64,000 nucleotides of DNA, taken from the NCBI GenBank assembly GCA_020696385.1, contig JAEHCQ010000004.1, positions 1 to 64,000 on the forward strand, written 5' to 3'. The notes beneath the pieces were generated by a model. That model was given only the letters and a program-made list of their open reading frames with translations, ran no database searches and was not told the DNA's origin. How positions within the stretch are numbered: the stretch's first letter is position 1; every line of letters starts with the position of its first letter. Source of the stretch: Methanobacteriota archaeon. GTDB lineage: Archaea > Thermoplasmatota > Thermoplasmata > SG8-5 > JAGLSY01. Of this stretch, positions 38,891-59,471 are shown piece by piece. Position numbers and translations under genes: made by a program.

Positions 38891-39016
38891 TTGCCAGTTA
38901 ATTTAACAAAACTAAAGTTTTCCCAAACCTTTATTAACAATACTTCAAATAACCTATAATAACATATTAATACTTTAATATTTTTGAAATATTAGGTAAT
39001 TATAAGCAACTGGCAA
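38891..39016. promoter_or_regulatory. AT-rich divergent promoter region with inverted repeats
   Basis: TAATATTT-TTG-AAATATTA at 38976-38994; TTGCCAGTT (38891-38899) and AACTGGCAA (39008-39016) flank the AT-rich core. Confidence 0.45.
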
Positions 39017-39036
39017 CTGAAAAAGAAGGGGACGAT

Positions 39037-39741
39037 ATGAACAAGAAGGAACTTCAAACAAGCCTCTCCATAATGGGCAGGGAGAGGTCGCTGGACATTA
39101 TTTCGTTTGCTGTTGACCATGGCTGGTCAACAGCAACCGAGATATCTCATGGTCTGGACATGCACGTGGCAACCGCAGTTAAGCATTTGCAGGACCTGGA
39201 ATCGATCGATGTGCTGGAGTCCAGAACAAGAAAGGGAAAGACGAGAAGCGCCCTGGAATACAATATAAAAAATTCCAGGATATTCTACGATATCGACATC
39301 ATGTCTTTGGGTAGCCAGGGTGAGATGGAGAAGGACAATGATCTCCATCTTTCCATGGTCTTCTTGTGTGAATTCTCCCAGCGTCTTATGAGGTTCACTG
39401 GTAACACGACAGGGTCGCTCCTTGAGTCCTGGAAGAAGGATCTGGGTTTGGATGATGCCGTGTTGGGTCATCTGAGAACGTGCATTGATTCTTATGAACC
39501 AGATGATGAGAATAGATCATCTGGTTTGGCTGATAAGATGGATGGTTTGGACCATTTGCAGATAATTGACTCGATCCTCGAATTCGAAGAGCGAACAATG
39601 GGCAGGTCTTCATTGATCTCTCTTGTCAATATTTCACTGGCCCGGGCTTTCAAAGATATGAAAATGGAGGAGGAGGGATCCAACTCCTCACTTTACAAAT
39701 TGATCAATAAAAAATATTCGACAAGAGAGGTGGAAAAATGA
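39037..39741 (+). CDS. ArsR-like winged-helix regulator with C-terminal helical domain
   Basis: STATEISHGLDMHVATAVKHLQDL...VLESR.R.GKTRSALEY. Confidence 0.8.
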   Translation: MNKKELQTSLSIMGRERSLDIISFAVDHGWSTATEISHGLDMHVATAVKHLQDLESIDVLESRTRKGKTRSALEYNIKNSRIFYDIDIMSLGSQGEMEKDNDLHLSMVFLCEFSQRLMRFTGNTTGSLLESWKKDLGLDDAVLGHLRTCIDSYEPDDENRSSGLADKMDGLDHLQIIDSILEFEERTMGRSSLISLVNISLARAFKDMKMEEEGSNSSLYKLINKKYSTREVEK

Positions 39742-40454
39742 CAATAAGTACTGGAATAAGCGGCTTGAACGAACTTGCTGGCGGGGGATTTCCCGAGCGG
39801 ACCATCAATCTAATATCCGGGCCTGCTGGGAGTGCCAAGACATTGTTCGGAATGCAGTTCATATTCAAGGGATTTACAGAGTATGGAGAAAAAGGGTTAT
39901 TCATCACCCTGGAAGAGAGCAGGGAGAATCTTCTTCGCGCCTCCAAGGCCTTTGGAATGGACTTTGACAAATTTAATGGAACAGATGATATCCAGCTCGT
40001 GGATTTTGGCGAGATGAGGAAGGATCTGGACCTGGAGGAGGATGTGGACCTTGGAATAGTCAGCCTCAGGAACTTGCTGGACTTTATAATCAAGACAGTG
40101 AAAGAGACTGGAGCAACCAGGCTACTCATCGACTCCATCTCCGCCATGGGATTGTATTACAATGATGTCGATGAGTTCAGAAGGGAGTTGTTCAGATTCT
40201 GCCGTATACTGAAGGATCACGACCTGACGACCGTGCTGATAACCGAGGCCAATAAGAGCGGGGAAACAAGATTCGGCATCGAGCAGTTCATTTCCGATTC
40301 CATAATAGTTCTGGATTATGAGAATGTCGAGGGCGAGTACAGGCGTACGATAACGATCTACAAGATGAGATTCGCCCGTCATGATCCCTACAAACATCCC
40401 TTCCTTATCATGAGCGATGGGATCGAGATAGACAGCCAGGAGACAATATATTGA
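39738..40454 (+). CDS. KaiC-like / RAD55 family ATPase (single domain)
   Basis: STGISGL, GPAGSAKT, TLEES, LLIDS, IYKMR. Confidence 0.92.
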   Translation: MTISTGISGLNELAGGGFPERTINLISGPAGSAKTLFGMQFIFKGFTEYGEKGLFITLEESRENLLRASKAFGMDFDKFNGTDDIQLVDFGEMRKDLDLEEDVDLGIVSLRNLLDFIIKTVKETGATRLLIDSISAMGLYYNDVDEFRRELFRFCRILKDHDLTTVLITEANKSGETRFGIEQFISDSIIVLDYENVEGEYRRTITIYKMRFARHDPYKHPFLIMSDGIEIDSQETIY

Positions 40455-40529
40455 CGATCTGTAGATCATAATTGATTGTCTTAAAATCATAATTTGTTAA
40501 TCTAAATATCATATTTAACTGGAGAAATA

Positions 40530-43500
40530 ATGCCTGAAGAAAAAACCGGATCATATGCCGTGATGGCTCTGGAGGAACAAACCTACCTGTCGATGGCCCA
40601 CCTTATTCAGAAATATGTGAATGAGGATAAGACCATCATCACGCTCGTTGCCACTTCTTCTGGAAAGGAATTGATCGAGGTCCTGGAGGGCATGGGCCCG
40701 GAAATGCAGGGTCTTGGAGAGAAGAACCAGCTCATTGTGATAGACTGGTTCTCATATCAGATATCCCAGGTCATCGGTGTTGAGGAGGAAGATAACTTAC
40801 TCCTATGTGCCAGGGCTCTTTTGAATGTGAACATGGCCGTGAACAAGGCCATCAAGATGCTGGAAGGATCTGAGAATATCGTATTTATAACCGATATTCT
40901 CCAACAATCTGTGGATATCTTCGGACCAGATGCCGCGATGGACTTCATGAGAAAGAACATGAGCAAGATGCATGATAAGAATATCACATCCGTCCATGTC
41001 ATATCCCCCAGCTTCGTGGAGCATGATATAGTTAATCGAATGCATGTCCAGTTAGGTCAGCCAGTCGATGTTGGATCGATCGTCGGAACCAGGATCGAGA
41101 CCTCGGACCTGATACTGGATGATAAGGGCACGATCGAGAACATAATCAATTTCCTTGGACTTTCTGTCGGTGAGGATTCTACCGATATTCAATTCTACTT
41201 GTGCGGGAACTGTGGGGCATTCCTGAACGAGCGCAGTGTGTTCTGCCCAATATGCCACTTCGCGGTGGAGGAAGACGCGGTAACTGACGAGATCCTGTCC
41301 CGCTGTTCGAGTTGCGGGGCATTGATAAGTTCCATCTCCCAGGATTGTGGAGTATGTGGGGAGATGTTCAGCCAGGACCTGGCAGCAGAAGCATTGGGTA
41401 AGGAGCTGGCGGAGGAGCATGATGATCTCCTTGAAACGATACCGGAGATCGATTTCCAAATGTGCAGTTCCTGTGGGACCTTTGTGGAAGGGGATATGGA
41501 AATATGCCCAAAGTGCGGGGAGATGATATCCACCGAGGTCTATGATGACATATTGGATATGGACCTGGAGGAAAAGCCAGATATGGATAGGCTGGAGACA
41601 GCTCCTGACCTCGATATCGGCATATGCGATTCCTGTGGCGCATTCCTGGGCAAGGGATCCCAGAGTTGTCCGAATTGCGATGAGATCCTAGACATGAAGG
41701 AATTCAGACTGGATGATGACCTCATCAATTCTTTGGGAGACCTGGAGGACGAGATGGGGGATATCGGCCCCTTGTCGAAAGAATTGACTGGTGTTCTATC
41801 CAGGGATCTGAATATTCCAGATGAGGATCCGGAGGAAGAAATCGACCTTCTCGAAACGGTTCCTACCATTGGTTTCACGGTCTGTGATTCCTGTGGAACT
41901 TTCGTTATGGGCGATTCCCGTTCATGCCCAAATTGTAAACAAATGGCGGTCGAAGAGAAGGATATACTGAAGGACGAAGTTCTCAGATCGCATATGGAGG
42001 ATCTCGAGGACGAGATGTTCTCCCTGGATCTATTGGAGTTGAAGGATGAGGATCTGGAAGAGGTCGATATTGTCGAACATGATACAGAAAGCGTATCCGT
42101 TGAGCATGATCCTGATGCGGCATTCGAAGAGGACTGGCTGCTATTGGAATTGGATGGACTGGATGACCTGGAGGAGGCATTGGCCGATACGGGTCCCGAT
42201 GCATTGGAAGAGGCATTATTGGCTGATTTATCATCGGCAGATGCGACAGAAAATATTGCATCTACCGATGATTATGAACTTGACCTGGATGACCTCGATC
42301 TGGATCTGGTAGATGATCCAGAATATGAACCTGAGCCAATCCTCGAGGAAGAGCCAGATGAGAACGTGGATGAACTCCTCGATTCTCTTGTCTTTGATTT
42401 TGATGAAGCTGATGAGCCAGATGCTCCACCGACCCCCATTGTCTTTGGTATCGATGGAGAAATAATTGAAGATCCAATAAAATTGGGTCATACGGATATG
42501 GAGGAAGTCGAGTCAGATGAAGAGATCCAGGATCTTCTCAATTCTCTTGAATTCACCATGGATGATGAAGTTGATGATGATGATGATCAGGAATATGAGA
42601 TCATCGATCTTGATGAAAGCCAGCATCATGATGACTACACCGAGGAAGAGTTGGAGGATGTATTGGATTCCCTGGTGTACGATGTGTCTGCTGAGAAGAT
42701 ATCACATTCCAGTGACCTCGAACTCTCTGAAAAGATGAGAAGGGAATTTGGCCATGCACATGGATTGACCAACGGTCAGGGACGTACTAATGGCCTGACC
42801 AATGGCCAAGGTGTTGCCCATGGTTTGACCAATGGAATAGGTCGAACGAACGGTATGACCAATGGTGTTGGCAGGACTAATGGTCTTACGAATGGCCAAG
42901 GCCGCACCAATGGCCTTACAAACGGTATGGGTAGAACCAATGGGATCACCAATGGCATGGGCAGGACGAACGGCCTTACAAATGGCCTGACCAATGGTTT
43001 GGTCAATGGCTCTGGCCTCGTGAACGGTGATGGCTTCTTAAATGGTGATTCTCTCGCTGAAAGAAAGCTGGATATATCCATATTGAGAAAAAATCGACAG
43101 AGAGCGCGTAGATGGAAAATTGGCCTTTTATCCATGATCATCGTGATATCCCTGATCATGTATGTTCCGATATTCACCGATAATATGAGCGAGATCGACA
43201 GAAGGGACATCTCGATAGATGGATCTTTCAATGACTGGAACAAGTTCCACACTCATATGGACAGAGTGTCGGATGTCATTAATCAGGATATAGATCTGGT
43301 GGATACGAAATTCTCTTTTGATGATCCCTATCTTGATATATTCCTTCAGGTGGATGGAACCATCCTGGGGGGCGATGGTGCGAATGGTACTGGCGTGGAT
43401 TCCATCTACGTTCTAATGGATGCAGATAGAAATCCCGATACTGGCTATTCCATCGACCACATGGGCATGGATGTTTTGATCGATATCCAGGGCTATGGAA

Positions 43501-45926
43501 ATCATGTAGCAGGGTCCGAGATGCTTAGATTCAATGATGCCAATGATAATGATGACTGGAATGGTTTCAGGTTTGAAAGACCCGTATCCAGTAAGATCAA
43601 TGAAAATATGATCGAGCTGAGGGTGGCGATGAATAGCATAATGGATCCCGAACACCCGTCCATCCTTGTCATCACCAGGGATTCGGAAGGTAATTCGGAT
43701 ATATCTGATGGAATCATGGTGCCGGATATGGCATCCCTTTCCATCCGATCGGATGCTGGCAATTCGAATGACATATTATTCTCAAATGAGATCCTTTCAT
43801 CTTCCTTCGAGTTCGTGTCTTATGGGGATGATATCGAGCTTGATTCATTGGATATTCGATTATTGGGAACAGCCAGCCCGAATATTCTTTCACAATTATC
43901 AGTTTACAAGGATATGAATTTCAATGGAATAGTGGAGCCAGTGATCGACGAGTTGATCGCTCTGCAAACCACCACGATAGATCGCTCACTCCATCTGGAA
44001 TTCGCAGATCCTATCACCCTATCACCATCTGAGAGGACGGTGCTCATTCTTTCATCCACTTTGATAGGAGCGGAGAATGGCCAGACCATTGGTTTCCAGC
44101 CTCTGGATGCTGGAATCGGAAATGAGATCATATTGGATATTGACACTGATATATCATTTATTCATCATTTTGGCACGCCATCTGATACAAAAATAGATGG
44201 CGCTTTCGGTGATTGGCAGTCCATATCACCGAATGTCGATGCTGCCAATGACCAGGCGATTCCCGGTCAGGATATCAGCCAGATGAAATTCGTGAACAGG
44301 AATGTGGATATCAGGGATTATCGAATAAGTATGGATGATGAGCTGAATATCTACGCGTCCGTGGCCGGGATCGCGATGGGAGGTTCGACAATACCAGTGC
44401 TCAGATATCGTACAATTCCATCCACCTCTAATATAACACCTCCGCCCGTGGTTCCAGTGGACTCGGACAATGATGGTGTTCCGGATATCGTGGATGGCCC
44501 TGGCGGCTCTCTTGCCAATGATTTCAATAATGATGGAATTGATGATGCATCCTCCAGCGGGGATCGTGATGGTGACAATATTATCGACTATAGCTCTGGA
44601 GGTGCGGATCACTGGCTCAATACCACCATCCCACAGAGCTTTGACAGCAATTATTCTGGCAGGTCTATAAGCCGTTATATTGGCCCTGTCAAGCACATTG
44701 AGAAAAAGGGCATGGACCATCTGCAGATATTCATAGATGCGGATGATGATATCGAAACAGGCCATTATGTAGATGGCTTGCTGGGTGCGGATCATCTAGT
44801 TCTTCTTACTGGCAAATCGAATACGATAATCTCCAGTGAGGTATATTTCTATGATGAAACATCGAATGGGATACCATGGACCTATTCCGGCAAAGCATCC
44901 GGGGCCAATGACCTATCCCGGATGGAGATCGGCATCCCTATCGAACTTGTCGGTGTGTCAAGACAATCCGATATCTCCATCGCTCTGGAAATGTCCGATT
45001 GGAGAAATACAGTGGATACCACGAACAGCATCAGACACATTGCCGAGGCTGTCAGATCATCCAGATCGATAGGCCCCGAGGAACCTGTTTCAGATCCAAT
45101 CGATCCAATGGCTCCCAAGCTACCCAATATGTCCATATCCAAAACAGCCAATGTGACTACCGCCCAGCCAGGTGACCTGATAACCTATGAAATATGGTAC
45201 AACAATACTGGTGCTGGGAAGGCCTGGGATGTTCAGATCGATGATGTACTTCCAGCGAATATTGATTATGTTATTGCCAATCCACTGCCCGCGACGATAG
45301 TTGGCCAGGATCTTGGCTGGACATTCAATCAGGTTGCCAGGCAGACCTCGAACCTTATAACTATCGAGGTGCAGGTGAATGCCAATGCGACCGATCTGGA
45401 ATCGCTGTCCAATTCCGTTATCCTGACCCATTCCTTGGGGGCAGATGCATCATGGGCCAATGTCACCTGCCAGCGACCTGTTATCGATATTCAGAAGGTC
45501 GCCAATGTCACATCGGCCTATGCCAATGATTCCATCATGTACACCATATTCTACAATAATACTGGATCCAACAATGCGGGCAATGTATGGATAAATGACA
45601 CATTGCCTTCTGGTATTATCTTCGATAGTGCGGTTCCAGCTCCTGCGACGATCGTCGGCCAGGATCTTGGCTGGTACTTCACGGATGTCGCGCCTGGCTC
45701 ACATGCGATCTTCATCAATGTGAGTGTCAATTCCACTCCACTTGCTGGTTCTATCGATAACTGGGCTCTTTTGAACTACACGGCCTCCAATGGCTACATG
45801 CTTTTGCCAGACAATGATGTGGCATCTATCAATATAATCGTAATTGATGAGTTCAGTAATATCTTATCAATTATCTTAATAACAATCGCAGGCATCTTCA
45901 TCATGCAGATCAGGCAGAGGCCTTAG
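40530..45926 (+). CDS. 1798-aa membrane protein: degenerate KaiC-fold N-terminus, 5 zinc ribbons, acidic linker, GRTNGLTNG repeats, TM helix, large extracellular region with two DUF11-like repeats, C-terminal PEF-CTERM-like anchor
   Basis: VIDWFSY...NMAVNKA...FITDIL matches the window's KaiC domains; CxxCG-x9-CxxC x5; basic patch plus TM; IDGxFxDW x2; K.ANVT...Y.I.YNNTG...D.LP x2; DEF + TM + basic tail. Confidence 0.85.
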   Translation: MPEEKTGSYAVMALEEQTYLSMAHLIQKYVNEDKTIITLVATSSGKELIEVLEGMGPEMQGLGEKNQLIVIDWFSYQISQVIGVEEEDNLLLCARALLNVNMAVNKAIKMLEGSENIVFITDILQQSVDIFGPDAAMDFMRKNMSKMHDKNITSVHVISPSFVEHDIVNRMHVQLGQPVDVGSIVGTRIETSDLILDDKGTIENIINFLGLSVGEDSTDIQFYLCGNCGAFLNERSVFCPICHFAVEEDAVTDEILSRCSSCGALISSISQDCGVCGEMFSQDLAAEALGKELAEEHDDLLETIPEIDFQMCSSCGTFVEGDMEICPKCGEMISTEVYDDILDMDLEEKPDMDRLETAPDLDIGICDSCGAFLGKGSQSCPNCDEILDMKEFRLDDDLINSLGDLEDEMGDIGPLSKELTGVLSRDLNIPDEDPEEEIDLLETVPTIGFTVCDSCGTFVMGDSRSCPNCKQMAVEEKDILKDEVLRSHMEDLEDEMFSLDLLELKDEDLEEVDIVEHDTESVSVEHDPDAAFEEDWLLLELDGLDDLEEALADTGPDALEEALLADLSSADATENIASTDDYELDLDDLDLDLVDDPEYEPEPILEEEPDENVDELLDSLVFDFDEADEPDAPPTPIVFGIDGEIIEDPIKLGHTDMEEVESDEEIQDLLNSLEFTMDDEVDDDDDQEYEIIDLDESQHHDDYTEEELEDVLDSLVYDVSAEKISHSSDLELSEKMRREFGHAHGLTNGQGRTNGLTNGQGVAHGLTNGIGRTNGMTNGVGRTNGLTNGQGRTNGLTNGMGRTNGITNGMGRTNGLTNGLTNGLVNGSGLVNGDGFLNGDSLAERKLDISILRKNRQRARRWKIGLLSMIIVISLIMYVPIFTDNMSEIDRRDISIDGSFNDWNKFHTHMDRVSDVINQDIDLVDTKFSFDDPYLDIFLQVDGTILGGDGANGTGVDSIYVLMDADRNPDTGYSIDHMGMDVLIDIQGYGNHVAGSEMLRFNDANDNDDWNGFRFERPVSSKINENMIELRVAMNSIMDPEHPSILVITRDSEGNSDISDGIMVPDMASLSIRSDAGNSNDILFSNEILSSSFEFVSYGDDIELDSLDIRLLGTASPNILSQLSVYKDMNFNGIVEPVIDELIALQTTTIDRSLHLEFADPITLSPSERTVLILSSTLIGAENGQTIGFQPLDAGIGNEIILDIDTDISFIHHFGTPSDTKIDGAFGDWQSISPNVDAANDQAIPGQDISQMKFVNRNVDIRDYRISMDDELNIYASVAGIAMGGSTIPVLRYRTIPSTSNITPPPVVPVDSDNDGVPDIVDGPGGSLANDFNNDGIDDASSSGDRDGDNIIDYSSGGADHWLNTTIPQSFDSNYSGRSISRYIGPVKHIEKKGMDHLQIFIDADDDIETGHYVDGLLGADHLVLLTGKSNTIISSEVYFYDETSNGIPWTYSGKASGANDLSRMEIGIPIELVGVSRQSDISIALEMSDWRNTVDTTNSIRHIAEAVRSSRSIGPEEPVSDPIDPMAPKLPNMSISKTANVTTAQPGDLITYEIWYNNTGAGKAWDVQIDDVLPANIDYVIANPLPATIVGQDLGWTFNQVARQTSNLITIEVQVNANATDLESLSNSVILTHSLGADASWANVTCQRPVIDIQKVANVTSAYANDSIMYTIFYNNTGSNNAGNVWINDTLPSGIIFDSAVPAPATIVGQDLGWYFTDVAPGSHAIFINVSVNSTPLAGSIDNWALLNYTASNGYMLLPDNDVASINIIVIDEFSNILSIILITIAGIFIMQIRQRP
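42759..43045 (+). repeat. Peptide-level decamer repeat xGRTNG(L/M/I)TNG (about 7 copies plus degenerate GLVNG units)
   Basis: Seen in translation; synonymous codons differ between units. Confidence 0.95.
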
Positions 45927-48900
45927 CACTAGCACCTGCACTAACACCTTGCTGGTCCGACTTCTTTTTCCCGATCATCGACACGCATTTGAGTGCCTCG
46001 TCCTGCTTTCCCATCTTCATAAGTACATAGCCCTTATTGATCCAGGCATCCTTATAATTCGGATCAAGCTTGATCGCCCTATTGTAGTTCTTCAGGGCCT
46101 CGATATAATTCTCCTTTCTGGCAAATGCATTTCCTCTATTGTTCCAGGCGATTATGTACCTGGGATTGGCGATCAATGCATTATTGTATGATTCCAGGGC
46201 ACTGTCCATGTTCCCAAGTTTGGAATATGCATTTCCCTTGCTCACCCAAGCGACCTCGTTATTGGGATTGATGGAAAGGGCCATGTCCAGGCATTCGATC
46301 CCTTCCTTCAATTTTCCCATTAATATCAGGGTCGCACCTTTGCTATACCAGGGGACATCGTATTCCCTCGGATCACTGACTTTCGATACGGTTGTATCAT
46401 TGCTTTTCTCAAGTGCGCGATCATAGGATCTCAATGCCTTTTTGTAATCTTTATTGAGATAGTCCAAGTCTCCTCGAACGATCTCTGTCTCTATCGATGT
46501 ATGCAGATTTCTCTCATAGGCAAGGAGTATGGCACTGGCCACAATGAGGAATATGCCTATCCCGGCTATTATCGCTCCCGGGGGCTGGATGGGGGAATAC
46601 GCCCACTGCTCGAAATAATAAAGCTCTCCGATGGCGAATAGGAATAAGAATATGGTTCCAGATAACCACAGATGGATATAGCGAACCTTGCTCCTTATCC
46701 AGATTATGCCAATGCCGATCATGATTATACCAGTGGACAGGAGCATTTTATCCACCAGAGGGTCCTCGATCATCATACCCGCGAACCAGTGTAGGAGAAT
46801 GAAGGATATTATCAGCCCCCCGATCATGAATACGGATCCTCTATACAGATCGCCTTTCATGAATATGGATCTTGATGTGACCAGCATGATGATGGCGAAT
46901 ATCAGGATAATACCGAATATTATGGCCAGTGAAATTGGATTCACTGGTATGTAAGATGCAAGTGCGACATAGAATATGGATGTCAAAAGGGAAGCGATGA
47001 CCCCGTATTCCCATCCAGAGTGACCGAGATACTGTGGCCCTCCAGTGGTCTCCACCATGGCATGGGATCTGAAGGGAACGTGGACATCGTCATGAGTATC
47101 ATCGAGCATATCCTCTCCAGCATCGATGTCTATCTGGCTTGTGGGAATGGTCGTGGTCGGATCTTCCTCAGTTTCGTCCTCATAAACTTCGACCTCTTCA
47201 TACTCGATGTCGTCGTCAACCTCAACTTCCTCATACTCTATTCCATCATCAATTTCTACCTCTTCGTATTCGATCTCATCCCCATCTGAATTTACATAGA
47301 CCTCGACATCTTCATACTCGGTATCGTCATCAGTCTCAACTTTCTCAGATTCGATCTCACCATCCACTTCGGAATCATCGTATTCGATTATTTCCTCATA
47401 GTCACCGTGGTGGACACCCTCTTTAATATCTTCTTCAGAGAGGGATAGAGTATCATATTCCACATCTCTATCTTGATGGATATCATCATCATCCAGATAT
47501 CCATCCACTTTTATTTCATCTTTATCTATGTGCAGATCTACCAGGTCCAAACCTTCCAATTCATCTTCTTCGGACGGCACAACTATTGATTCGGCCATCG
47601 TCTCGTCAATGTCTATCAAAAGCTCATCCAGATCGTCTTCTATCTCATTCATTTCCTGAACAAGGCCATAGAATTTGGCCTTGTTAATTATGTAATTGGC
47701 CTTGGTTAGTTGCCCTTCTTCATAGGCCTTTTCTATCCTGGCCAGTTTTTCCTCATTTGACAGTTCCGGGCTCTTTTTCTGACCCGGTGATTCAGGCTCT
47801 TTCTTTTCAAGGATGAGATCATCCATATCATCTTCCATCTCATTAAGATGATCAATGGCACTTTCCCTTGTCAGATCGGGAATACCCAATTCGATGATAT
47901 CCGATATGTCCACCCTGTCATCATAGGACATCTCCTCTTCAATATCTACTTCATTATCGAGGAATGTGAAGCCACATACTTCACAATCTCCAGCCCCCAC
48001 CCCGAACTTCGATCCGCAGTTGGGACAAACACTGTCTGAAAGAATGACAGAGTCATCCTCCAGATCCATCACGATGCCATCATCCAGGCTCTGGCCACGC
48101 GATAAGTCTGAATCGCAGACCGAGCAAGCTGCGGCATTCGCTGAAACAAATGCTCCACAATCCGGGCAGAGTTCCAGTTCGCCACCGATCCTTTCCTCGG
48201 GAGATGTATCTCGTAATTCCAGCACTCCCAGTGCTTTTTTCAGGATATCCATTGGGTCATCCGCGTCCTTGCCCATCTCCAGGACATCATCTGCTTGGAT
48301 GGATTGCAGTAGGTTTACATCGACATCGGCTCCGCACACATTGCATGAATCTGAATCTGCTCTGATGAAAGCCCCACACTCGCCACAGATGGACATTTCA
48401 TCATGCCCATCAGTGGGCAGTTCCGTGTATATGATATCTGGAAGGTCTTGTTTTTCTGTCTGGCACACGGGACATTTTTGCTCATCCTGTGGAATGAAAG
48501 CCCCACATTTCTGACATATTCCGATATCATCAATATGTTCGGCCATTGGGTCCGGATCCAGTATGACATCATCCAGTATTCCGAGTATGGATCTCAAAGC
48601 GGTCTCCGTGTTCTTTCCATCATCCTCAATGGCCACAATCTCATCATCTTTCTCAATACCCAGATATCCACCGGATCTTATGTCATTTCCACAAACATTG
48701 CATTCTTTTGAGGATGGGGAAACAAATGCTCCACATTCGCCACATAGCATGATCTCATCGCCACCATCTCCTTCTATGGATATATCTCTGGACACTCTTT
48801 CGCTTATGGATTCCACGATCCTGGTCTTCTCTATTTCTTCACTGATATTGATGTGAAGTATGTCGGCATCATCAGCATGGTCACCTTCATGTTCGTCACC

Positions 48901-49485
48901 TGCCAGGCCTGGCCTGATATCGAGCACGATATCAGGATCTTCATCGAATAGATCCACGTCCTCAATATCCGGTATTTTGTCAATGACCGAGATCAGATCA
49001 TCTGGATCATCTATATTATCCAGTTCCAGAATAAGCTCATCCTCTTCCTGCACATCATTCTCGATGAGAAGGTTCAGCAGGTCACTATCATATTCCATCC
49101 CATCCGTATCTTCTCCATCCTCTTCGTCGAGGGGTATTCCACAATTGGGACACTCATTGGAATCCGAGCTGATGAAGGCTCCACACCCGGAGCAAAGGAA
49201 CAGGGTGACGGCTTCCTTTTCCCCCTCTGGTGAGATATTGTCATTCTCTTCGATCTTCATATCACAATTGGAGCATTCCCGTGCTCCTTTTTCCAATGAT
49301 CCTCCACACCTTGGGCAAGCAATCCCTAAGGTATCTAAGTCTTCATCTATCAGATCATTCAGACCCTTATCGAACTCCTCATCCACTTCCTCTTCCAATG
49401 GCTTGTTACAATTGGGACAAATAGAGGCCTCCTCGTTTATGAAGGCGCCACAAAATGGGCATAGATAAAGTGCGGAATCGCTCAA
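45910..49485 (-). CDS. 1191-aa protein: 8 zinc ribbons, SHOCT-like segment, acidic EYEEVEV repeats, about 6 TM helices, C-terminal TPRs
   Basis: CxxCG-x9-CxxC x8; EKLARIEKAYEEGQLT; W..KG/RG..L....EA...Y..A...NP TPR units; TTG start after AGGAGA. Confidence 0.85.
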   Translation of the reverse strand: MSDSALYLCPFCGAFINEEASICPNCNKPLEEEVDEEFDKGLNDLIDEDLDTLGIACPRCGGSLEKGARECSNCDMKIEENDNISPEGEKEAVTLFLCSGCGAFISSDSNECPNCGIPLDEEDGEDTDGMEYDSDLLNLLIENDVQEEDELILELDNIDDPDDLISVIDKIPDIEDVDLFDEDPDIVLDIRPGLAGDEHEGDHADDADILHINISEEIEKTRIVESISERVSRDISIEGDGGDEIMLCGECGAFVSPSSKECNVCGNDIRSGGYLGIEKDDEIVAIEDDGKNTETALRSILGILDDVILDPDPMAEHIDDIGICQKCGAFIPQDEQKCPVCQTEKQDLPDIIYTELPTDGHDEMSICGECGAFIRADSDSCNVCGADVDVNLLQSIQADDVLEMGKDADDPMDILKKALGVLELRDTSPEERIGGELELCPDCGAFVSANAAACSVCDSDLSRGQSLDDGIVMDLEDDSVILSDSVCPNCGSKFGVGAGDCEVCGFTFLDNEVDIEEEMSYDDRVDISDIIELGIPDLTRESAIDHLNEMEDDMDDLILEKKEPESPGQKKSPELSNEEKLARIEKAYEEGQLTKANYIINKAKFYGLVQEMNEIEDDLDELLIDIDETMAESIVVPSEEDELEGLDLVDLHIDKDEIKVDGYLDDDDIHQDRDVEYDTLSLSEEDIKEGVHHGDYEEIIEYDDSEVDGEIESEKVETDDDTEYEDVEVYVNSDGDEIEYEEVEIDDGIEYEEVEVDDDIEYEEVEVYEDETEEDPTTTIPTSQIDIDAGEDMLDDTHDDVHVPFRSHAMVETTGGPQYLGHSGWEYGVIASLLTSIFYVALASYIPVNPISLAIIFGIILIFAIIMLVTSRSIFMKGDLYRGSVFMIGGLIISFILLHWFAGMMIEDPLVDKMLLSTGIIMIGIGIIWIRSKVRYIHLWLSGTIFLFLFAIGELYYFEQWAYSPIQPPGAIIAGIGIFLIVASAILLAYERNLHTSIETEIVRGDLDYLNKDYKKALRSYDRALEKSNDTTVSKVSDPREYDVPWYSKGATLILMGKLKEGIECLDMALSINPNNEVAWVSKGNAYSKLGNMDSALESYNNALIANPRYIIAWNNRGNAFARKENYIEALKNYNRAIKLDPNYKDAWINKGYVLMKMGKQDEALKCVSMIGKKKSDQQGVSAGASAKASA

Positions 49486-49627
49486 AGTGATAGTCTCCTG
49501 TTTGATGTTACGGACAGTTTTTTATATATCTGTTAAGACTTATAAATAGATTTGCAGAATAATTATAAATTAATCCATCTTATGCAAATGATTAAAATAT
49601 GGTTAGCTATATTGGAGAACGGAAATC

Positions 49628-50380
49628 ATGCCCTCAGAAAATATTATTGAAAGAGAACGTTGCGTTACAGGAATAGATGGTTTGGATAATATTCTGAATG
49701 GAGGGATACCCAGAGGAAATACCATTTTGTTCACAGGCAGTTGCGGTACTGGAAAGACCACACTGTCCCTTGAATTTTTAGTGCATGGAGCTCTGGCCGA
49801 TGAGAATTCCCTTTTCGTATCTGTCACAGAGTCATCAGATAAATTGACAACCAATGTCATTCCTTACGACTTCTTCGAGGAATCCCTGATCAAGACAGGA
49901 AAATTGGCCTTTGTCGATATGCCAGTCATCTACGAGAGACTTGGCTTGACAAATGTGGAGTTCAGTCTGGAGGATGTGGATACCCTGGTACGAGCATTGG
50001 GGAATCTTGTGGACGAGCTTTCTGTGAAACGACTCGTCATTGACTCCATAACCTCTGTTTGCTATAGATTGAAAACAGAGGAAAAAATAAGGGAATTCAT
50101 ATTGAAGATAGGAAAGGCTCTTTCTAATAGGGGATGCACCAGTCTCTTGATATCCGAAATATCACCATCCGCAGATAGATATTCTCTATACGGGGTTGAG
50201 GAAGCCATAGCAGATGGGATCGTCCTAATGGGGAACTATGAACGCAGGGGAGATCTTTTGAGAACATTGCAGGTGGTCAAGATGAGGGGGACAACACATT
50301 CCAGAGCCAAATATGTCCTGGACCTGACACCTGCGGGTGTGCTTCTTGTTCCATTGCTCAAGGGCGGTGGAGGTATATGA
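49628..50380 (+). CDS. KaiC-like / RAD55 family ATPase
   Basis: TGIDGLD.IL.GGIP, GSCGTGKT, LVIDS, GVEEAIADG, VVKMRGT.H. Confidence 0.93.
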   Translation: MPSENIIERERCVTGIDGLDNILNGGIPRGNTILFTGSCGTGKTTLSLEFLVHGALADENSLFVSVTESSDKLTTNVIPYDFFEESLIKTGKLAFVDMPVIYERLGLTNVEFSLEDVDTLVRALGNLVDELSVKRLVIDSITSVCYRLKTEEKIREFILKIGKALSNRGCTSLLISEISPSADRYSLYGVEEAIADGIVLMGNYERRGDLLRTLQVVKMRGTTHSRAKYVLDLTPAGVLLVPLLKGGGGI

Positions 50381-50958
50381 TCAAATCACCTGGTGATCTG
50401 GCGAATGAGCTTCATGAGCTCCCTCCTTCTTCTGCAATTAATCTCAAGATAGTCAGTGACAGTTATTTCGATGCCATAAGGGGAATAGTGGATATCTTCG
50501 CCAATAAGAAGAATTTAAATGTGATCTATATCACCGTGGCTATTCCATCACATTCGATAATCGATGTCCTCAAGATACTGGAGATCGACCTCACCAATAT
50601 CTACTTCGTGGATTGTGTTTCCCATATCATGATAGGTGGAGCCAAGAAATACAAGAACGTGCTCTATGTGGAGAGCCCCACGATGTTGGAGAATATCATG
50701 CTGAAAGTGGAATACCTCATAAGGAAGTCCGAGGGCAAGAACAATGTGATAGTTCTTGACGCGATCAATGCTCTGGGTATTCACAATAATATGAAGATAC
50801 TATCTGAATTCTTGCATATTTTTATAAACAATCTGAGGGCGAAGGATGCTTATTCCATGGTCTTCACGATGGAAGAGTTCAGCACTGATGAGATATCCAA
50901 TATGATGAAGCTGGTTTGCGATACCACAATAACCATCGGAGGTGGTGGAGATGGCTGA
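50377..50958 (+). CDS. Inactivated KaiC/RecA-fold protein
   Basis: VIYIT..P, YFVDCVS, VESPT.L, IVLDAI..L..N; no Walker A; coupled between two ATPase genes. Confidence 0.7.
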   Translation: MIKSPGDLANELHELPPSSAINLKIVSDSYFDAIRGIVDIFANKKNLNVIYITVAIPSHSIIDVLKILEIDLTNIYFVDCVSHIMIGGAKKYKNVLYVESPTMLENIMLKVEYLIRKSEGKNNVIVLDAINALGIHNNMKILSEFLHIFINNLRAKDAYSMVFTMEEFSTDEISNMMKLVCDTTITIGGGGDG

Positions 50959-51697
50959 AACTACCAGTATAGGTGTTGCGGAATTGGACAAATCCCTAAT
51001 GAATGGAGTTCCAAGAGGATACACTATTCTGGTCACTGGCACTCCCGGAACTGGCGTCGAGCTCTTTGCCAAACAGTTCGCAGCAGCTGGCATTGGAAAG
51101 GAGAATGTCACATACTTCTCCACCACTGAAAGTGACGAAGCTGTGAAGAATGCCATGAAGGAGTTCGGATGGAAGCAGGATATAAGGGTCGTGAACATTG
51201 GCAAGATGTACTATGAAAAAGTTCTGGCCAAGAATCTCGAGGTCAGCAAGTATCGCCAGGAAGGATTGAAGATGCGTGATATCAAGCAATTCAATGCCAG
51301 CCAGGCCGAGCAAAGCCAGGATGTCAATTTCCTTACTACTCTGACTTATGGTATATCGAAGCTCAAGCCTCCTTTTAGAATTGTTCTGGATTCTCTGGAT
51401 TTCTTTCTTGAATATTATGATGAACCCGATGTGCTCTCCGCTATCAGGACCATCAAGGCACATACTCATCTCAATAATGGCATAGCTCTTGTCACCATGC
51501 TGAAAGGTGTCTTTGACAATCGGGTGGAAAGCGGTGTCCAGGATATTGTGGATATCACGATAGAGATCGAAAGACTGAGAGAGGGATCGGAATTCAAGAG
51601 GAACATATTGATCAGAAAAGTAAGGAATCATCCAGAGAAAACAAAGATCCTTTCATGTCACATCGATGAAAAGGGTATATCTGCGAAAACCCTATGA
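50951..51697 (+). CDS. RAD55/KaiC-like protein with degenerate Walker A
   Basis: G.AELD..L.NGVP.G, GTPGTGVE (no Lys), IVLDSL, IRKVRN. Confidence 0.88.
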   Translation: MAETTSIGVAELDKSLMNGVPRGYTILVTGTPGTGVELFAKQFAAAGIGKENVTYFSTTESDEAVKNAMKEFGWKQDIRVVNIGKMYYEKVLAKNLEVSKYRQEGLKMRDIKQFNASQAEQSQDVNFLTTLTYGISKLKPPFRIVLDSLDFFLEYYDEPDVLSAIRTIKAHTHLNNGIALVTMLKGVFDNRVESGVQDIVDITIEIERLREGSEFKRNILIRKVRNHPEKTKILSCHIDEKGISAKTL

Positions 51698-51711
51698 CGC
51701 CTGTAACTCGT

Positions 51712-51770
51712 CAATAGACGTATATGCATACGGCAATAGACGAAATATTTTAAGAAAAGTATAAATATAT
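51712..51770 (+). promoter_or_regulatory. Pilin promoter: direct repeat CAATAGACG x2 followed by BRE/TATA
   Basis: CAATAGACG at 51712 and 51734; AAGAAAAG-TATAAATA at 51752-51767. Confidence 0.5.
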
Positions 51771-51833
51771 TGAACTTGTAATCCAATATCACGTAAATCT
51801 TAACTCAGGTTTTGATTTACAGGAGGACGAAAC

Positions 51834-52349
51834 ATGAAAAACACATGGAATATAAGAAAGAAGGAAGACGCAGTGTCTCCAGTTATCGCTACCATTTTGA
51901 TGGTCGCAATAACTGTGGTATTGGCTGCTGTGCTCTATGTTATGGTCATAGGGTTCGGCGGTGACGGTAGCTCCACCCCAGCAGGGTCATGGAATGCAGC
52001 CGCTGCAGACTCTCAGACTGAAGGAACATTGACCTTTGGTGCCTTTACAACAGATGTTGCACCATTGGACTTGAAAATATTCGTTAAAGCTAACGGAACA
52101 GCACTAGGTGAGATATCATTCACACAAAACACACTATCACCTCAGCCGCTCACATGGGTAGCTGGTGCACCTGCAACTGCAGTATACACAGATTATAATG
52201 CAGCTAACGGTGAGGTAAACTCTGGTGATTACATAACATTCACCGGTCTCAGTGCAGGAACCACTTACTCATTTGAAGTGTTCCACATTCCGTCTGATGC
52301 AACAGTCTCCATGACTGGTACAAACGGCCAGTTCCAGACACCAGCATAG
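51834..52349 (+). CDS. Archaeal type IV pilin (class III signal peptide)
   Basis: RKKEDA|VSPVIATILMVAITVVLAAVLYVMV; strong GGAGG RBS. Confidence 0.93.
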   Translation: MKNTWNIRKKEDAVSPVIATILMVAITVVLAAVLYVMVIGFGGDGSSTPAGSWNAAAADSQTEGTLTFGAFTTDVAPLDLKIFVKANGTALGEISFTQNTLSPQPLTWVAGAPATAVYTDYNAANGEVNSGDYITFTGLSAGTTYSFEVFHIPSDATVSMTGTNGQFQTPA

Positions 52350-52376
52350 ATAATCTAAGCTAGACGATTTGGACAA

Positions 52377-52417
52377 TGTGAGCCTTAACCGGCTCACACT
52401 CTTTTCCTTTTTCTTTT
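52377..52417 (+). terminator. Hairpin plus pyrimidine/T tract after pilin 1
   Basis: TGTGAGCC-TTAACC-GGCTCACA then CTCTTTTCCTTTTTCTTTT. Confidence 0.7.
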
Positions 52418-52459
52418 AAAATTCTCTCTTCTTAGAGGGTGTTATGTATTTTAGAAAGA

Positions 52460-52730
52460 TTGACCTCCCCGCCATTCTAACGGGGTTTCGAATATAGAAC
52501 TGTCACTCGTCGAGATATAGAACATAGTACCCCGCCCCTGTATTTTTCGGGATTGCTCCGCCTGGCGCATATTACTGAACGGCTTCGCAACCTTCGAAAT
52601 TCGGGATATTTCGTCGAATATATGACGAATTTCTTCAGGCGGGGCATGTTCGCATACAAATGCCTTGCATGGACATCGCCTTGCATTCTGATGCCTCGCT
52701 TACACATTGCCACAGATTGCCAGCCTATTA
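52460..52730 (-). mobile_element. Candidate non-autonomous IS200/IS605-derived element or structured RNA
   Basis: Minus strand ends GAAACCCCG-N9-CGGGGAGGTCAA; long stem 52520-52540 / 52636-52651; no credible ORF. Confidence 0.35.
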
Positions 52731-52810
52731 GTAATAAAAATGTGTTTTAATATCGAAACGGTTTTATATAACTAACACATCTGTAGTATGTGGCACAGGG
52801 AAGTGTAAAT

Positions 52811-53332
52811 ATGAGATATAATCAATTCATTAGAGAGAAGGCAGGAGTTTCTCCTATCATAGCGACGATATTGATGGTAGCTGTCACGGTCGTTCTAGCC
52901 AGTGTTCTTTATGTCATGATAGTCGGTATGGGAAGTGGCTCTGCCGATCTTGCACCTCTAGGAATATGGTCATCCTCGGATATCACAGGGAATACCACAG
53001 CTACATACACTTTTGGCAGCTTCAGTTATGATGTCATACCAATAGATATCAAGATCATTGTGCAGGAAGGCGATAATCAGACCTTCACCGAGTTCACAGG
53101 GAGATTGCAGAACAAAACAACCCCTATGTTCTTGACAGGCAATAATACGGATACAATGAGCATCACTTATCAGGATAATAACTGGGGGGCCAATACTATA
53201 GGTGGTGGTGATAAACTATTCATCAGTGGTCTACAGCCAGATACTGTCTACACTGTCAGGGTATTTCACAAACCATCTGATCAGATCATACAGATGACCG
53301 GCGATAGCAGTTCTATCCAGACCCTTCCATAA
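52811..53332 (+). CDS. Archaeal type IV pilin, paralogue 2
   Basis: REKAG|VSPIIATILMVAVTVVLASVLYVMI; globular part alignable to pilin 1 (TFG.F..DV.P.D.KI, GD, VFH.PSD, MTG, QT). Confidence 0.92.
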   Translation: MRYNQFIREKAGVSPIIATILMVAVTVVLASVLYVMIVGMGSGSADLAPLGIWSSSDITGNTTATYTFGSFSYDVIPIDIKIIVQEGDNQTFTEFTGRLQNKTTPMFLTGNNTDTMSITYQDNNWGANTIGGGDKLFISGLQPDTVYTVRVFHKPSDQIIQMTGDSSSIQTLP

Positions 53333-53868: not shown

Positions 53869-53902
53869 TGATCTGTATATTCCTGCTGACCGTACACATC
53901 CA

Positions 53903-54460: not shown

Positions 54461-54474
54461 ATCTCAAACCTCCA

Positions 54475-58526: not shown

Positions 58527-59471
58527 TTATATTTGTAATCCATCACGGGATATGCCAGCGATCATCGCTACATGTCCCTTTTCTCTGATCATGCTGGCCA
58601 GTTCTTCCGGCTCATTGGTCAATGCCGCTACATAAGCATGACTTTCCGATACGCACAGCCTCACTCCGTATGCCCGGGACCTGCAAGTCTTGGCCAGAAC
58701 TTTTAGTTCTGGCGTGTACATGCCCATTATCTTCGTCAACTTGTCAGTCTCATTCATGGCATGCCCCACACCTGCCATGTCCCCGCGCTTCAAAGCCTCC
58801 AGACCTTGCTTCGCAAGCTTTGCAGAATCCTTGTACATGTCCTTAATGAATCCACCCTGACGTCTGGCAATACTATCGATCTTTCCAGACATATTCCTGC
58901 TTGCTACATTTTCATTGAGGAATCCAAGGACAAAGGTCATATCCGGCACATCCAGATGATGGATATGAACCGCCTTCTTCCCCTCTCCGATGCTCCATAG
59001 ATGGCCTTCCCCGATATCATTGGACGATACCGTGCCATATCCATTAATGGCAGTGGACAATTCCAGTATTCCCGCCCTGCTCTTGTTCTCTTTCAATACA
59101 GCATGGCCTTTCAGAACAATATCCTCGAACATGAGATTGTCATTCATGATCGAAAGGGAACCCAGAGCTGAAGCGATGTGCGCGGACCTATACCCACTTA
59201 CATTGCCCGGCACTTCTATATCATCGATCTCAAATGCGACTGGAGTATCGATATCACTCCAGCCATTCAGTAGAGCCGCCCTCACATAGGGAAATCTATT
59301 CCTATCATAGATATCACCATTTACCATGAAGCTGTCAGATATCTGTGTCTCGCATCTTATTCGCTTATCCAGTGCGACCCCGACGGACGTACCTCCATGC
59401 TCATGAAGATCATATCCCAATATCGTAAGATTGCAGGGCGCTGAGGCGGAAGCTCTTTTGCTCGAGCTCAT
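58527..59471 (-). CDS. GHMP-fold mevalonate kinase homologue with degenerate catalytic motifs
   Basis: ASAP..L.ILG, AL..GD...VG..MN, G..TPEL..L, A.G pattern of MVK, but GLGSS and GAGGGG motifs are absent. Confidence 0.7.
   Translation of the reverse strand: MSSSKRASASAPCNLTILGYDLHEHGGTSVGVALDKRIRCETQISDSFMVNGDIYDRNRFPYVRAALLNGWSDIDTPVAFEIDDIEVPGNVSGYRSAHIASALGSLSIMNDNLMFEDIVLKGHAVLKENKSRAGILELSTAINGYGTVSSNDIGEGHLWSIGEGKKAVHIHHLDVPDMTFVLGFLNENVASRNMSGKIDSIARRQGGFIKDMYKDSAKLAKQGLEALKRGDMAGVGHAMNETDKLTKIMGMYTPELKVLAKTCRSRAYGVRLCVSESHAYVAALTNEPEELASMIREKGHVAMIAGISRDGLQI

Follow-up and report, generated by a model that had tools for sequence, protein, structure and literature searches.

The locus examined here, some 14 kb of a Thermoplasmata genome, brings together a winged helix-turn-helix (wHTH) regulator, a set of KaiC-like proteins, a giant receptor-like membrane protein, a zinc-ribbon membrane protein, and two type IV pilin genes, and it raises the question of whether these genes form one signaling pathway or several systems that lie side by side. 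It is located in positions 1-64000 of contig C44 (the window, meaning the whole 64,000-nucleotide stretch that was analyzed) of a source genome (G000) of 2.28 Mb in 50 contigs, rated 94% complete. A preliminary description of the window had proposed a single route from an extracellular receptor through KaiC hetero-oligomers to pilin control. The comparisons reported here suggest instead, with moderate confidence, that the 14 kb is made up of three units of a KaiC-centered regulatory network, each inherited separately, that are neighbors in this Thermoplasmata family. Unit A (39037-45926), a three-component cassette, encodes the wHTH regulator, the ATPase KaiC1, and a receptor-like protein of 1798 amino acids (aa). 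Unit B (45910-49485) encodes an 1191-aa protein of the same domain network. Unit C (49628-53332) would be an ancient operon tied to the type IV pilus, with KaiC2, a 193-aa pseudo-KaiC, and KaiC4 (together, the trio) followed by two pilin genes. Judged from sequence comparison, conservation supports receptor-KaiC-regulator signaling and also, separately, a KaiC-pilus link, and does not support a pathway joining the two. This falls short of the one 'surface-sensing to pilin' pathway that had been proposed, and offers two well-defined, conserved, and testable units in its place.

The locus was compared with 41 class relatives and 151 phylum genomes. Relative genomes are labeled G001 and so on, fetched loci L0xx, and families by f-numbers; the relatives recovered by sequence are metagenome-assembled genomes labeled 'Thermoplasmata archaeon' or 'Methanomassiliicoccales archaeon'. 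Pfam scans covered 77 of 136 called open reading frames (ORFs) at unit-A loci, 76 of 139 at class unit-C loci, 55 of 93 at the phylum unit-C loci (9 of 12 more distant loci being scanned), and 16 of 30 in two further cassettes of the source genome on contigs C11 and C22. All ORFs described earlier were recovered at the same coordinates (Table 1).

Gene order in relatives

All parts of the locus are collinear in a sister species (G002), and contig pieces of G001 and G003 are consistent with the same order. In a sister genus (G004), units B and C and a pair of pilins lie between the same flanks, and the wHTH regulator, KaiC1, and the receptor are missing; G007 and G012 have the trio and pilins, with no wHTH match to this query; and G010, G016, G018, G020, and G035 carry unit A, with unit C on other contigs. 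Unit B orthologs lie away from A and C in 8/8 loci of other families, where their neighbors are unrelated housekeeping genes. Since A, B, and C are scattered in this way among relatives, their joint occurrence is confined to this genus among the genomes searched, and synteny across relatives did not show a single conserved 14-kb system. The parts of the proposed pathway that conservation supports are the receptor, KaiC, and wHTH unit, which recurs, and the trio, which is found recurrently before pilins; their union in one 14-kb pathway is not supported.

The cassette of wHTH regulator, KaiC1, and receptor

Recurrence of the triad is the strongest argument that receptor, KaiC, and wHTH regulator work together. 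The window wHTH was matched (E<=0.001) in 16/41 class relatives, with strong matches in nine. In 15 public loci collected by wHTH alignment, a KaiC1 ortholog follows directly downstream in 10 and a homologous receptor lies downstream in 12; one further locus ends inside KaiC1. An additional locus, L016, has the same order, but there the pseudo-KaiC is encoded by a gene of its own. The overlap of the wHTH stop with the KaiC1 start as ATGA, reported previously, was seen again, and a 4-nt overlap or abutment of the two genes occurs in 9/10 complete pairs checked, the tenth (L027) depending on the start codon chosen.

The source genome holds two more triads, ordered KaiC, wHTH, giant receptor, at C11:189.6-198.3 kb (L079; 293, 236, and 2285 aa) and C22:112.6-123 kb (L080; 307, 235, and 2884 aa). 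The C11 receptor contains HhH, ten zinc ribbons, TPR, an xxNG pentapeptide array, the same ectodomain as the window receptor (34% identity), and DUF11, and the C22 receptor contains TPR, HhH, one ribbon, 27 TNG repeats, the ectodomain, and FG-GAP. At the window, C11, and C22 alike, a KaiC, a wHTH protein of ~235 aa, and a giant membrane protein with xxNG array and ectodomain are adjacent on one strand. The C11 and C22 wHTH proteins are unrelated to that of the window (BLASTP E 0.22), and this second triad type has KaiC-wHTH gaps of 113 and 10 nt and a gene order different from that of the window cassette. Because the regulators are unrelated and the gene orders differ, the three-part design has been assembled at least twice. 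The second-type wHTH is matched in 36/41 class relatives, and at 24 relative loci fetched the KaiC adjoins the wHTH gene in all 24 and a receptor N-terminus is present in 20, one of the other four loci ending at the contig edge.

The receptors themselves vary in their inside modules. Homologous receptors carry from 0 to 12 zinc ribbons, and among 31 database homologs of the ectodomain some have KaiC/DUF7504 at the N-terminus and others HhH, zinc ribbon, and TPR. Zinc ribbons, TPR, HhH, and KaiC or pseudo-KaiC domains are swapped or fused on homologous receptors, a pattern that fits modules of one network.

KaiC1 has a Walker A motif of GPAGSAKT, with the Lys-Thr, the EE pair, and the Walker B Asp retained, and this P-loop variant (GPxGS[AG]K[TS]) is kept in 10/10 full-length orthologs. 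The GvpD_P-loop model scores KaiC1 at 24.3 bits and KaiC4 at 25.5 bits (cut-off 24).

The wHTH protein has no Pfam match at E<=0.01. Its AlphaFold2 (AF2) model (pLDDT 81 overall, >90 over aa 11-60) has a winged-helix fold; the whole protein is nearest in Foldseek to the Pyrococcus heat-shock regulator Phr (2p4w, E 2e-4), and the N-terminal domain superposes on CzrA, NolR, CadC, and SmtB at a root-mean-square deviation (rmsd) of 1.8-2.5 A over 76-82 columns. Because the ArsR-type sequence models stay under their cut-offs (NF033788, 16 bits vs 55; HTH_20, 14.9 bits vs 27), the protein is classed on sequence as a winged helix of its own small family.

The perfect 7-3-7 inverted repeat upstream of the wHTH gene is a candidate operator for autoregulation. 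With at most 2 mismatches it has two matches in the window, of which the only exact one is in the wHTH promoter and the other, at 10123, is unrelated; this count is not above chance, 22 of 100 shuffles giving at least 2 matches, so the repeat alone is not significant. The same search of the window found no copy at the pilin or KaiC2 promoters. In another family, the promoters of orthologous wHTH genes carry ATATTTCAC...GTGAAAT repeats at the same position.

Prediction of a complex between KaiC1 and the wHTH protein gave a score of 0.33 (runs 0.33, 0.19, 0.37), the best of 3 controls scoring 0.01, with a verdict of 'weak support'. The mark of this procedure is reached by 58/80 solved complexes and 2/110 mismatched pairs, and at scores of 0.60 or less by only 7/80 and both mismatches. 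The predicted runs agree in at least 84% of contacts, and the partner pLDDT is at least 77.

The 1798-aa protein was confirmed to have predicted transmembrane (TM) helices, an ectodomain, and DUF11, and 'receptor-like', the term already applied to it, is a fair name. For its N-terminal domain, a single sequence reaches only E 0.015 and 15.1 bits against PF06745, below the cut-off, and single-sequence hhalign against the KaiC1 profile gave a probability of 0.4%, taken as uninformative. A profile of 10 orthologs aligned to the KaiC1 profile gave a probability of 25% (E 7.8e-4, 150 columns), in register from the P-loop region to Walker B with Walker A lost. The same profile found KaiC (8zn5_B, E 9e-4) as its top match among PDB sequences, and the orthologous domains in L016 and L032 pass the Pfam KaiC cut-off.

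The xxNG array that follows the ribbons, reading 'LING' or 'RVNG' in some homologs, precedes the first TM helix in 13/13 receptors examined. Because a run of Arg and Lys (RKNRQRARRWK) stands before that helix, the positive-inside rule predicts a cytoplasmic N-terminus. The ectodomain (~650 aa) has no Pfam match and no PDB sequence match. An AF2 model of aa 883-1330 (pLDDT 72, from an alignment of 10 sequences) was read by structure comparison with VIA-align. Its residues 9-186 match 1i82 (CBM9; Z 10.8, rmsd 3.9, 148 aligned), 7uwu (Z 11.3), and 2ivf_C (Z 10.8), the fold lying at Z 10.3-11.3 to CBM9, Sas6, a glucodextranase C-domain, and ethylbenzene dehydrogenase gamma. For residues 190-333 the match is 6mnj (Z 11.3). 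Foldseek returned only generic multi-domain beta-sandwiches for the ectodomain (TM 0.15-0.23; integrin legs, MSCRAMM adhesins, scFv). On this reading the protein would have its N-terminus inside and an adhesin-like, possibly glycan-binding, outside. The domain-by-domain check by profile and Foldseek proposed earlier bore out the winged helix and, modestly, the KaiC-like N-domain of the receptor.

A radical-SAM protein of 527-534 aa is encoded convergent to the receptor gene at L079:3804-5387, L024:9192-10796, and L028:12493-14094, with an HhH tail in the C11 copy and 52-53% identity between the G000 copy and those of L024 and L028, and may be a recurrent fourth partner. As a fourth component of the cassette, the radical-SAM+HhH gene was left out, being absent from the window. 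The idea that unit A is a mobile insertion was also set aside, as it shows no integrase, tRNA, or composition shift, and is present in the genus and absent at the same place in G004.

The KaiC trio and the type IV pilins

KaiC2 has an intact Walker A, a catalytic Glu, and a Walker B Asp, a pattern absent from KaiC4, the 193-aa protein, and the receptor N-domain. In a search of 25 loci the KaiC2 Walker A (G[ST]xG[TS]GKT) is kept in all 24 matched loci, and the Walker Lys and the following Ser/Thr of KaiC4 are both lost in all 20 matched orthologs. Since KaiC2 is always live and KaiC4 always dead across loci, the division into one live and two dead subunits is old. The three-gene KaiC operon described previously is present, with the order corrected from active, dead, degenerate to active, degenerate (193 aa), dead P-loop.

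The 193-aa pseudo-KaiC occurs in 38/41 class relatives, mostly in single copy, and in 63/151 phylum genomes at E<=1e-10. Its 815 database matches are named 'hypothetical', 'FlaH', or 'KaiC/GvpD/RAD55', and many carry PF06745; single-sequence hhalign against the KaiC1 profile gave a probability of 7%, taken as uninformative.

Twelve class loci picked by the 193-aa gene contain KaiC2 in 12 cases and KaiC4 in 11, the trio being intact in 11/12. Two Pilin_N genes lie directly downstream of the trio in 7/12; the other flanks vary by family, and the adjacent pilin pair spans six families (f1, f2, f3, f4, f7, f18). At phylum level, the 9 loci scanned have the trio in 6, a pilin beside it in 3, an Arc_PepC_II (prepilin-peptidase-like) protein beside it in 2, and a lamin-tail-domain (LTD) protein in 4. 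The latter, of 360-380 aa, always precedes the trio in L061, L063, L064, and L069, which come from genomes of ~2 Mb in families f26 and f44, and in L064 a prepilin-peptidase-like protein is on the other side of the trio.

The two type IV pilins reported previously hold up on Pilin_N and PDB matches, and both sequences read as archaeal type IV pilins, with a predicted class III signal peptide and a hydrophobic helix. TIGR02537 scores are 47.3 for pilin 1 and 35.3 for pilin 2 (cut-off 20), and each has one TM-like helix (aa 21-39 and aa 27-45, respectively). The best PDB sequence matches of pilin 1 are the solved archaeal pilins 8fj5 and 8gi2 (E 2e-6, 3e-6), and that of pilin 2 is 8fj5 (E 7e-7, residues 6-104). 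Both pilin queries match one place only in the sister species G002, so that pilin 2 may have been gained recently or may be a copy that diverges fast. Between the pilin genes, a spacer of 440 nt (52350-52789) contains a GC-rich stretch and several hairpins. Right after the pilins, a 134-aa ORF without a family match (53464-53868) is found at the same place at 92% identity in G002 and 82% in G004.

The source genome has five Pilin_N matches, two of them at this locus, and one pilus machinery locus (C11:555-560 kb), where 2 T2SSE and 2 T2SSF matches supply an assembly ATPase and platform. No archaellin match was found in the genome.

The zinc-ribbon protein of unit B

The convergent 1191-aa zinc-ribbon/TM/TPR protein and its 17-bp overlap with the receptor gene were found as described. 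Full-length orthologs (~1000-1290 aa) occur in many relatives across the class, and adjoin A or C only in the source family and two other lineages. Among the eight loci of other families, one has an unrelated wHTH-domain neighbor and one a separate ribbon protein. In G035, the unit-A operon locus also holds that genome's best match to the C-terminal part of unit B. A regular-expression search for CxxCG-x9-CxxC over 28 window proteins gave exactly the 5, 8, and 1 matches previously counted in three proteins and 0 in the rest, the single one lying at ~59.52-59.57 kb.

Alternative explanations

Several findings weigh against reading the locus as a signaling cassette and a pilus-linked operon inherited separately. 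The genomes compared are kin, so locus counts overstate independence. The window wHTH family is rare, with 8 proteins in a word-based search of 5.8 billion, and the KaiC1-wHTH score is a weak pass; for this tool, passes of that grade are wrong more often than right, except where the pairing was already likely. Support for a pseudo-KaiC in the receptor N-domain is modest, its scores being 25% and E ~1e-3 and the single-sequence comparison having failed. Three of the 15 wHTH loci (L030, L031, L033) pass straight from the wHTH gene to a ribbon-TM-ectodomain receptor without a KaiC, which means that KaiC is not obligatory, and two have neither KaiC nor receptor. Because a unit-B-like ribbon-array protein sits within the unit-A operon of L032 and L016, exactly where the receptor lacks ribbons, units A, B, and C are not fully independent. 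As to unit C, the pilin genes have their own promoters (TATA-like boxes), no pilin is beside the trio in 5/12 class loci, Pilin_N occurs in 127/151 phylum genomes vs 63/151 for the 193-aa pseudo-KaiC, and unit C is not needed for pili in general.

These last points, together with the terminator at the pilins and the near-universality of the middle gene in the class, speak for an explanation in which unit C serves Thermoplasmatota as a housekeeping regulator of general function, or as a timer, and pilin adjacency is inherited order without a functional link. We consider this rather unlikely. The flanks of the trio change between families and yet the pilin pair stays downstream across six of them, and in distant lineages a pilin or prepilin-peptidase-like neighbor is present in 5/9 loci. 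Moreover, among 20 listed genomes without Pilin_N only one has the 193-aa pseudo-KaiC.

Unit A could alternatively be the biogenesis and expression cassette of a giant adhesin rather than a sensor, in which KaiC1 and the pseudo-KaiC domain would serve its insertion or clustering, as an ATPase for assembly or quality control, and the wHTH protein would set the expression level. RecA-fold rings are capable of mechanical work, the outside of the protein is stalk-like, with tandem beta-sandwiches and DUF11 joined by FG-GAP, LTD, or CBM domains in homologs, and the candidate operator is in the cassette's own promoter. However, KaiC1 is translationally coupled to the DNA-binding protein and not to the membrane protein, the second triad type keeps KaiC next to the wHTH gene and ahead of the receptor, the three KaiC-less loci retain wHTH and receptor, and no conserved secretion or insertion component was found nearby in the loci scanned. 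An adhesin cassette of this kind is accordingly an unlikely description of unit A.

The pathway first proposed, in which the receptor would act through ribbon-docked hetero-oligomers of all the KaiCs on the two pilin genes, draws on the collinearity in G002 and the fitting pieces of G001 and G003, and on related proteins, the 524-aa one at 59.5 kb among them, that fuse ribbons, TPR, and KaiC domains in various ways. It also draws on the unit-B-like protein inside the unit-A operon and on the divergent arrangement of units B and C both here and in G004. Against it stand the restriction of A-C adjacency to this genus, the genomes with one unit and not the other, the remoteness of B in all eight loci of other families, and the blank operator search at the pilin and KaiC2 promoters, and it is now distinctly improbable. 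That the KaiC-like proteins act on DNA like archaeal RadA paralogs, with ribbon/HhH/SAP membrane proteins tethering or taking up DNA, is very improbable indeed: HhH in the C11, C22, and C33 receptors, the 524-aa protein, and the 655-aa protein of L016, SAP in the L027 receptor, the RadA paralog SSO2452 among weak PDB matches (E 0.3, not significant), and the RadC-type proteins that we take PF06745 to include are outweighed by a constant partner that is a wHTH regulator, by the lack of any conserved nuclease, helicase, or recombination gene in the cassettes scanned, and by KaiC4 and the 193-aa protein being without ATPase motifs.

Proposed mechanism and relation to known systems

For separately inherited units, we infer from the observed domain make-up, gene order with its conservation, and loss of catalytic motifs, and from the predicted topology, the following binding steps, signal direction, ligand, and regulon. 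In unit A, the outside part of the receptor would contact a glycan or surface, and the change would pass via the TM helix and xxNG array to the ribbons and the pseudo-KaiC domain. The inside part would then hold or release the active ATPase KaiC1, whose nucleotide or phosphorylation state would set whether the wHTH protein is free for DNA, where it would act first of all on its own promoter. In unit C, KaiC2, the 193-aa protein, and KaiC4 may form a mixed ring, as suggested by the overlapping genes and by the presence of one live and two dead subunits, that controls the only type IV pilus system of the cell. Control could be exerted on the assembly ATPase, as by ArlH on ArlI, or on pilin expression, as by CirA on arl genes.

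A broader generalization, which we regard as doubtful though worth stating, is that Thermoplasmata use systems of a giant adhesin-like receptor (CBM9-like ectodomains, juxtamembrane xxNG array, and inside it exchangeable modules of zinc ribbon, TPR, HhH, or pseudo-KaiC type), a single-domain KaiC ATPase, and a winged-helix regulator in place of most two-component systems, so that surface or glycan contact would alter the KaiC state and thereby transcription. In this genus, one such system would lie beside the phylum-wide, pilus-governing trio and couple adhesion sensing with pilus production.

KaiC-like ATPases were reportedly proposed as archaeal signal-transduction hubs by Makarova, Galperin, and Koonin in 2017. 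KaiC hubs with linked input and output domains, and an association of KaiC with type IV pili, are in print (PMC4858521, PMC5847659). The 2017 hub proposal reportedly ties single-domain KaiC and inactivated iKaiC, DUF835, and MEDS to input and output domains by fusion and neighborhood, and describes KaiC as strongly expanded where two-component systems are few. The present genome, with 30 KaiC matches vs 3 receiver matches above the cut-off, resembles that description. The 30 PF06745 matches are spread over 2.28 Mb and 5 are inside the 64-kb window, where ~0.8 would be expected (post-hoc arithmetic). In a full-text literature search, with supplementary arCOG tables outside it, neither a pairing of ribbon-array receptors with KaiC nor, in Thermoplasmatota, a KaiC trio beside pilins was found described.

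By these comparisons the locus is not a KaiABC clock, not ArlH, and not a two-component system. The clock protein is a double-domain KaiC (CI+CII, ~500 aa) with KaiB as partner, whereas the KaiCs of the locus are all single-domain proteins of 193-251 aa and KaiB (PF07689) has 0 matches across the 94% complete genome. No histidine kinase or receiver domain was found in the 9 locus proteins by Pfam scan, which together with the missing KaiB agrees with the preliminary description on these three absences; the receiver matches of the genome and its 4 HATPase_c matches lie elsewhere. ArlH (FlaH), a partner of the archaellum ATPase ArlI, shares with unit C a single-domain KaiC fold encoded with type IV filament genes, and JGI labels several orthologs of the 193-aa protein 'FlaH'. 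However, NCBIfam ArlH scores here are 36-50 bits (best 49.9, KaiC4) vs a cut-off of 215, and unit C has three paralogs, two of them catalytically dead, beside pilins and not an arl cluster, in a genome without an archaellin match. By analogy, ArlH offers a plausible model for the action of unit C on the pilus ATPase.

CirA of Haloferax volcanii is a KaiC-like protein encoded beside filament genes that lowers arlA1, arlI, and arlJ transcription and has a genetic link to pilins (PMC10983859). CirA differs in being a single protein in the haloarchaeal arl cluster. In the gas-vesicle system of haloarchaea, GvpD is a KaiC-fold P-loop protein that controls the transcription activator GvpE by direct contact; that pair has no membrane receptor, and the partner is a bZIP-like activator rather than a winged helix.

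The biomass sensors RsgI/SigI of Clostridium thermocellum and the integrins offer a functional analogy to unit A, in that a single-pass membrane protein acts on a regulator in the cytoplasm through a module on the outside that binds carbohydrate or adheres. The CBM3-like module of RsgI (4b9c) is among the fold matches of the ectodomain at Z 7.2, with no sequence relation and in a range (Z 7-8) that is common for the tool; integrin legs are among the Foldseek and VIA matches, and FG-GAP repeats occur in homologous receptors. The inside parts differ, being an anti-sigma domain or talin and kinases in those systems and KaiC with wHTH here. For the Cuniculiplasma CdiP pilus, a published account describes a pair of pilin genes far from the machinery, which has a split platform and, apparently, two ATPases (PMC12448462). 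The source genome, compared with CdiP and Sulfolobus Aap, likewise has its 2 T2SSE and 2 T2SSF matches in one remote locus. In family f9, presumably that of the Cuniculiplasma-like Thermoplasmatales, the 193-aa pseudo-KaiC is found in 0/15 and Pilin_N in 1/15.

The KaiC-hub idea has rested mostly on genome context, with few defined input-to-output units to test. The locus and its relatives offer such units: a triad that has arisen two or more times, the regulators being unrelated, and that persists throughout the class, and an operon of one active and two dead KaiC proteins tied to pilin genes across the phylum. Both are small enough for expression and reconstitution. If the triads signal, they would represent a third general design of prokaryotic transmembrane signaling, beside histidine kinases and Ser/Thr kinases, and would form a direct connection from adhesins on the cell surface to gene control in archaea that are abundant in sediments, the gut, and the sea.

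Other features of the window

Table 1. Features of the KaiC locus and the nearby 524-aa protein, in window coordinates (the curated cut-off of PF06745 is 26.6 bits).
Feature	Position	Strand	Basis and remarks
Perfect inverted repeat AATATTT-N3-AAATATT, candidate operator	38977..38993	.	44-60 nt upstream of wHTH start; read from sequence
wHTH regulator, 234 aa	39037..39741	+	AF2 model: ArsR/Phr-like winged helix (aa 3-77), all-helical C-terminal domain (aa 96-227)
KaiC1, single-domain KaiC-like ATPase, 238 aa	39738..40454	+	PF06745 4e-64, 216.5 bits
1798-aa membrane protein, receptor-like	40530..45926	+	DZR/zinc-ribbon and DUF11 matches; two predicted TM helices
Putative N-terminal pseudo-KaiC (iKaiC) domain, ~200 aa, no Walker A	40530..41189	+	Profile comparison
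Five zinc ribbons CxxCG-x9-CxxC, acidic linkers, predicted cytoplasmic	41202..41936	+	Regular expression; DZR, Zn_ribbon_3 matches
~19 tandem pentapeptides [GR]-x-[TV]-N-G ('LTNG/RTNG'), the xxNG array	42762..43046	+	Ends 24 residues before TM helix
Predicted first TM helix, aa 864-882, preceded by RKNRQRARRWK	43119..43175	+	Kyte-Doolittle scan
Conserved ectodomain, predicted fold: CBM9/DOMON-like beta-sandwich, Ig/cohesin-like sandwich, second copy from IDGAFGDW motif, Asp-rich segments	43176..45119	+	AF2 model, internal repeats
Two DUF11 repeats (cell-surface repeat)	45129..45809	+	PF01345 2.6e-20, 2 stretches; TIGR01451 2e-17
Predicted C-terminal TM anchor, aa 1776-1794, then RQRP	45855..45911	+	TM scan
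1191-aa membrane protein	45910..49485	-	Zinc ribbons, six predicted TM segments, TPR; converges on receptor gene, 17-nt overlap
TPR repeats of 1191-aa protein	45946-46455	-	
Six predicted TM segments of 1191-aa protein	46519-47004	-	
Eight zinc ribbons of 1191-aa protein, acidic linkers	47974-49461	-	Regular expression
KaiC2, canonical single-domain KaiC ATPase, Walker A GSCGTGKT	49628..50380	+	PF06745 6e-55, 186.6 bits
193-aa pseudo-KaiC, no P-loop, well conserved	50377..50958	+	PF06745 23.3 bits (<26.6), DUF7090
KaiC4, pseudo-ATPase, dead Walker A GTPGTGVE	50942..51697	+	PF06745 9e-25, 87.9 bits
Type IV pilin 1, own TATA-like box	51834..52349	+	Pilin_N 1e-11, 45.8 bits (cut-off 25.2)
Terminator-like hairpin after pilin 1	52377-52398		Terminator prediction
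Type IV pilin 2; likely true start ATG 52811	52790..53332	+	Pilin_N 1e-7, 33.2 bits (cut-off 25.2)
524-aa protein: KaiC-like domain (Walker A GPPGSEKY), HhH, TPR, one zinc ribbon	59468..61042	-	Outside 14-kb range; PF06745 97.5 bits

The seven KaiC-fold domains counted earlier between 30.7 and 61.1 kb are all accounted for, four above the Pfam cut-off, one just below it, the receptor N-domain by profile only, and a DUF835 domain at 30759-31718. DUF835 is labeled iKaiC in a table of PMC5847659. Single-sequence hhalign of the DUF835 protein against the KaiC1 profile gave a probability of 0.2%, taken as uninformative. The Walker A of the 524-aa protein departs from the intact GxxxxGK[ST] pattern, and in L048 and L054 homologs of this protein are encoded at a distance of ~5 kb from the trio. 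An Rfam search over 37500-54500 returned nothing at gathering score.

The genes of two Ras/Roc-like small GTPases (182 and 273 aa) are followed directly by that of the V4R+DUF835 (iKaiC) protein, all on one strand (30759-33085, minus). A Ras-like GTPase is also found ~5 kb upstream of the wHTH gene in L027, and a DUF835 protein immediately upstream of the KaiC trio in L056. Elsewhere in the genome, at C11:219.4-222.6 kb, a double-domain KaiC (a 490-aa frame with two PF06745 matches) has receiver and HATPase_c domains as neighbors, and two-component and KaiC signaling may meet there.

Positions 7465-28349 hold a long glycan/polysaccharide biosynthesis cluster, with GT4 glycosyltransferases, a UDP-sugar dehydrogenase and epimerase, a DegT aminotransferase, hexapeptide acetyltransferases, and flippases. 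The GC content of its core is 0.35-0.37 at 16-22 kb vs ~0.45 elsewhere, and the cluster may be an acquired surface-glycosylation island. Beyond the pilins, an amino-acid-kinase ORF with a TTG start (54475-55575, minus) overlaps the eRF1 gene (55292-56515, plus) by 284 nt; since its Pfam domain begins at aa 143 and its match in G004 at aa 139, the true start is probably further in.

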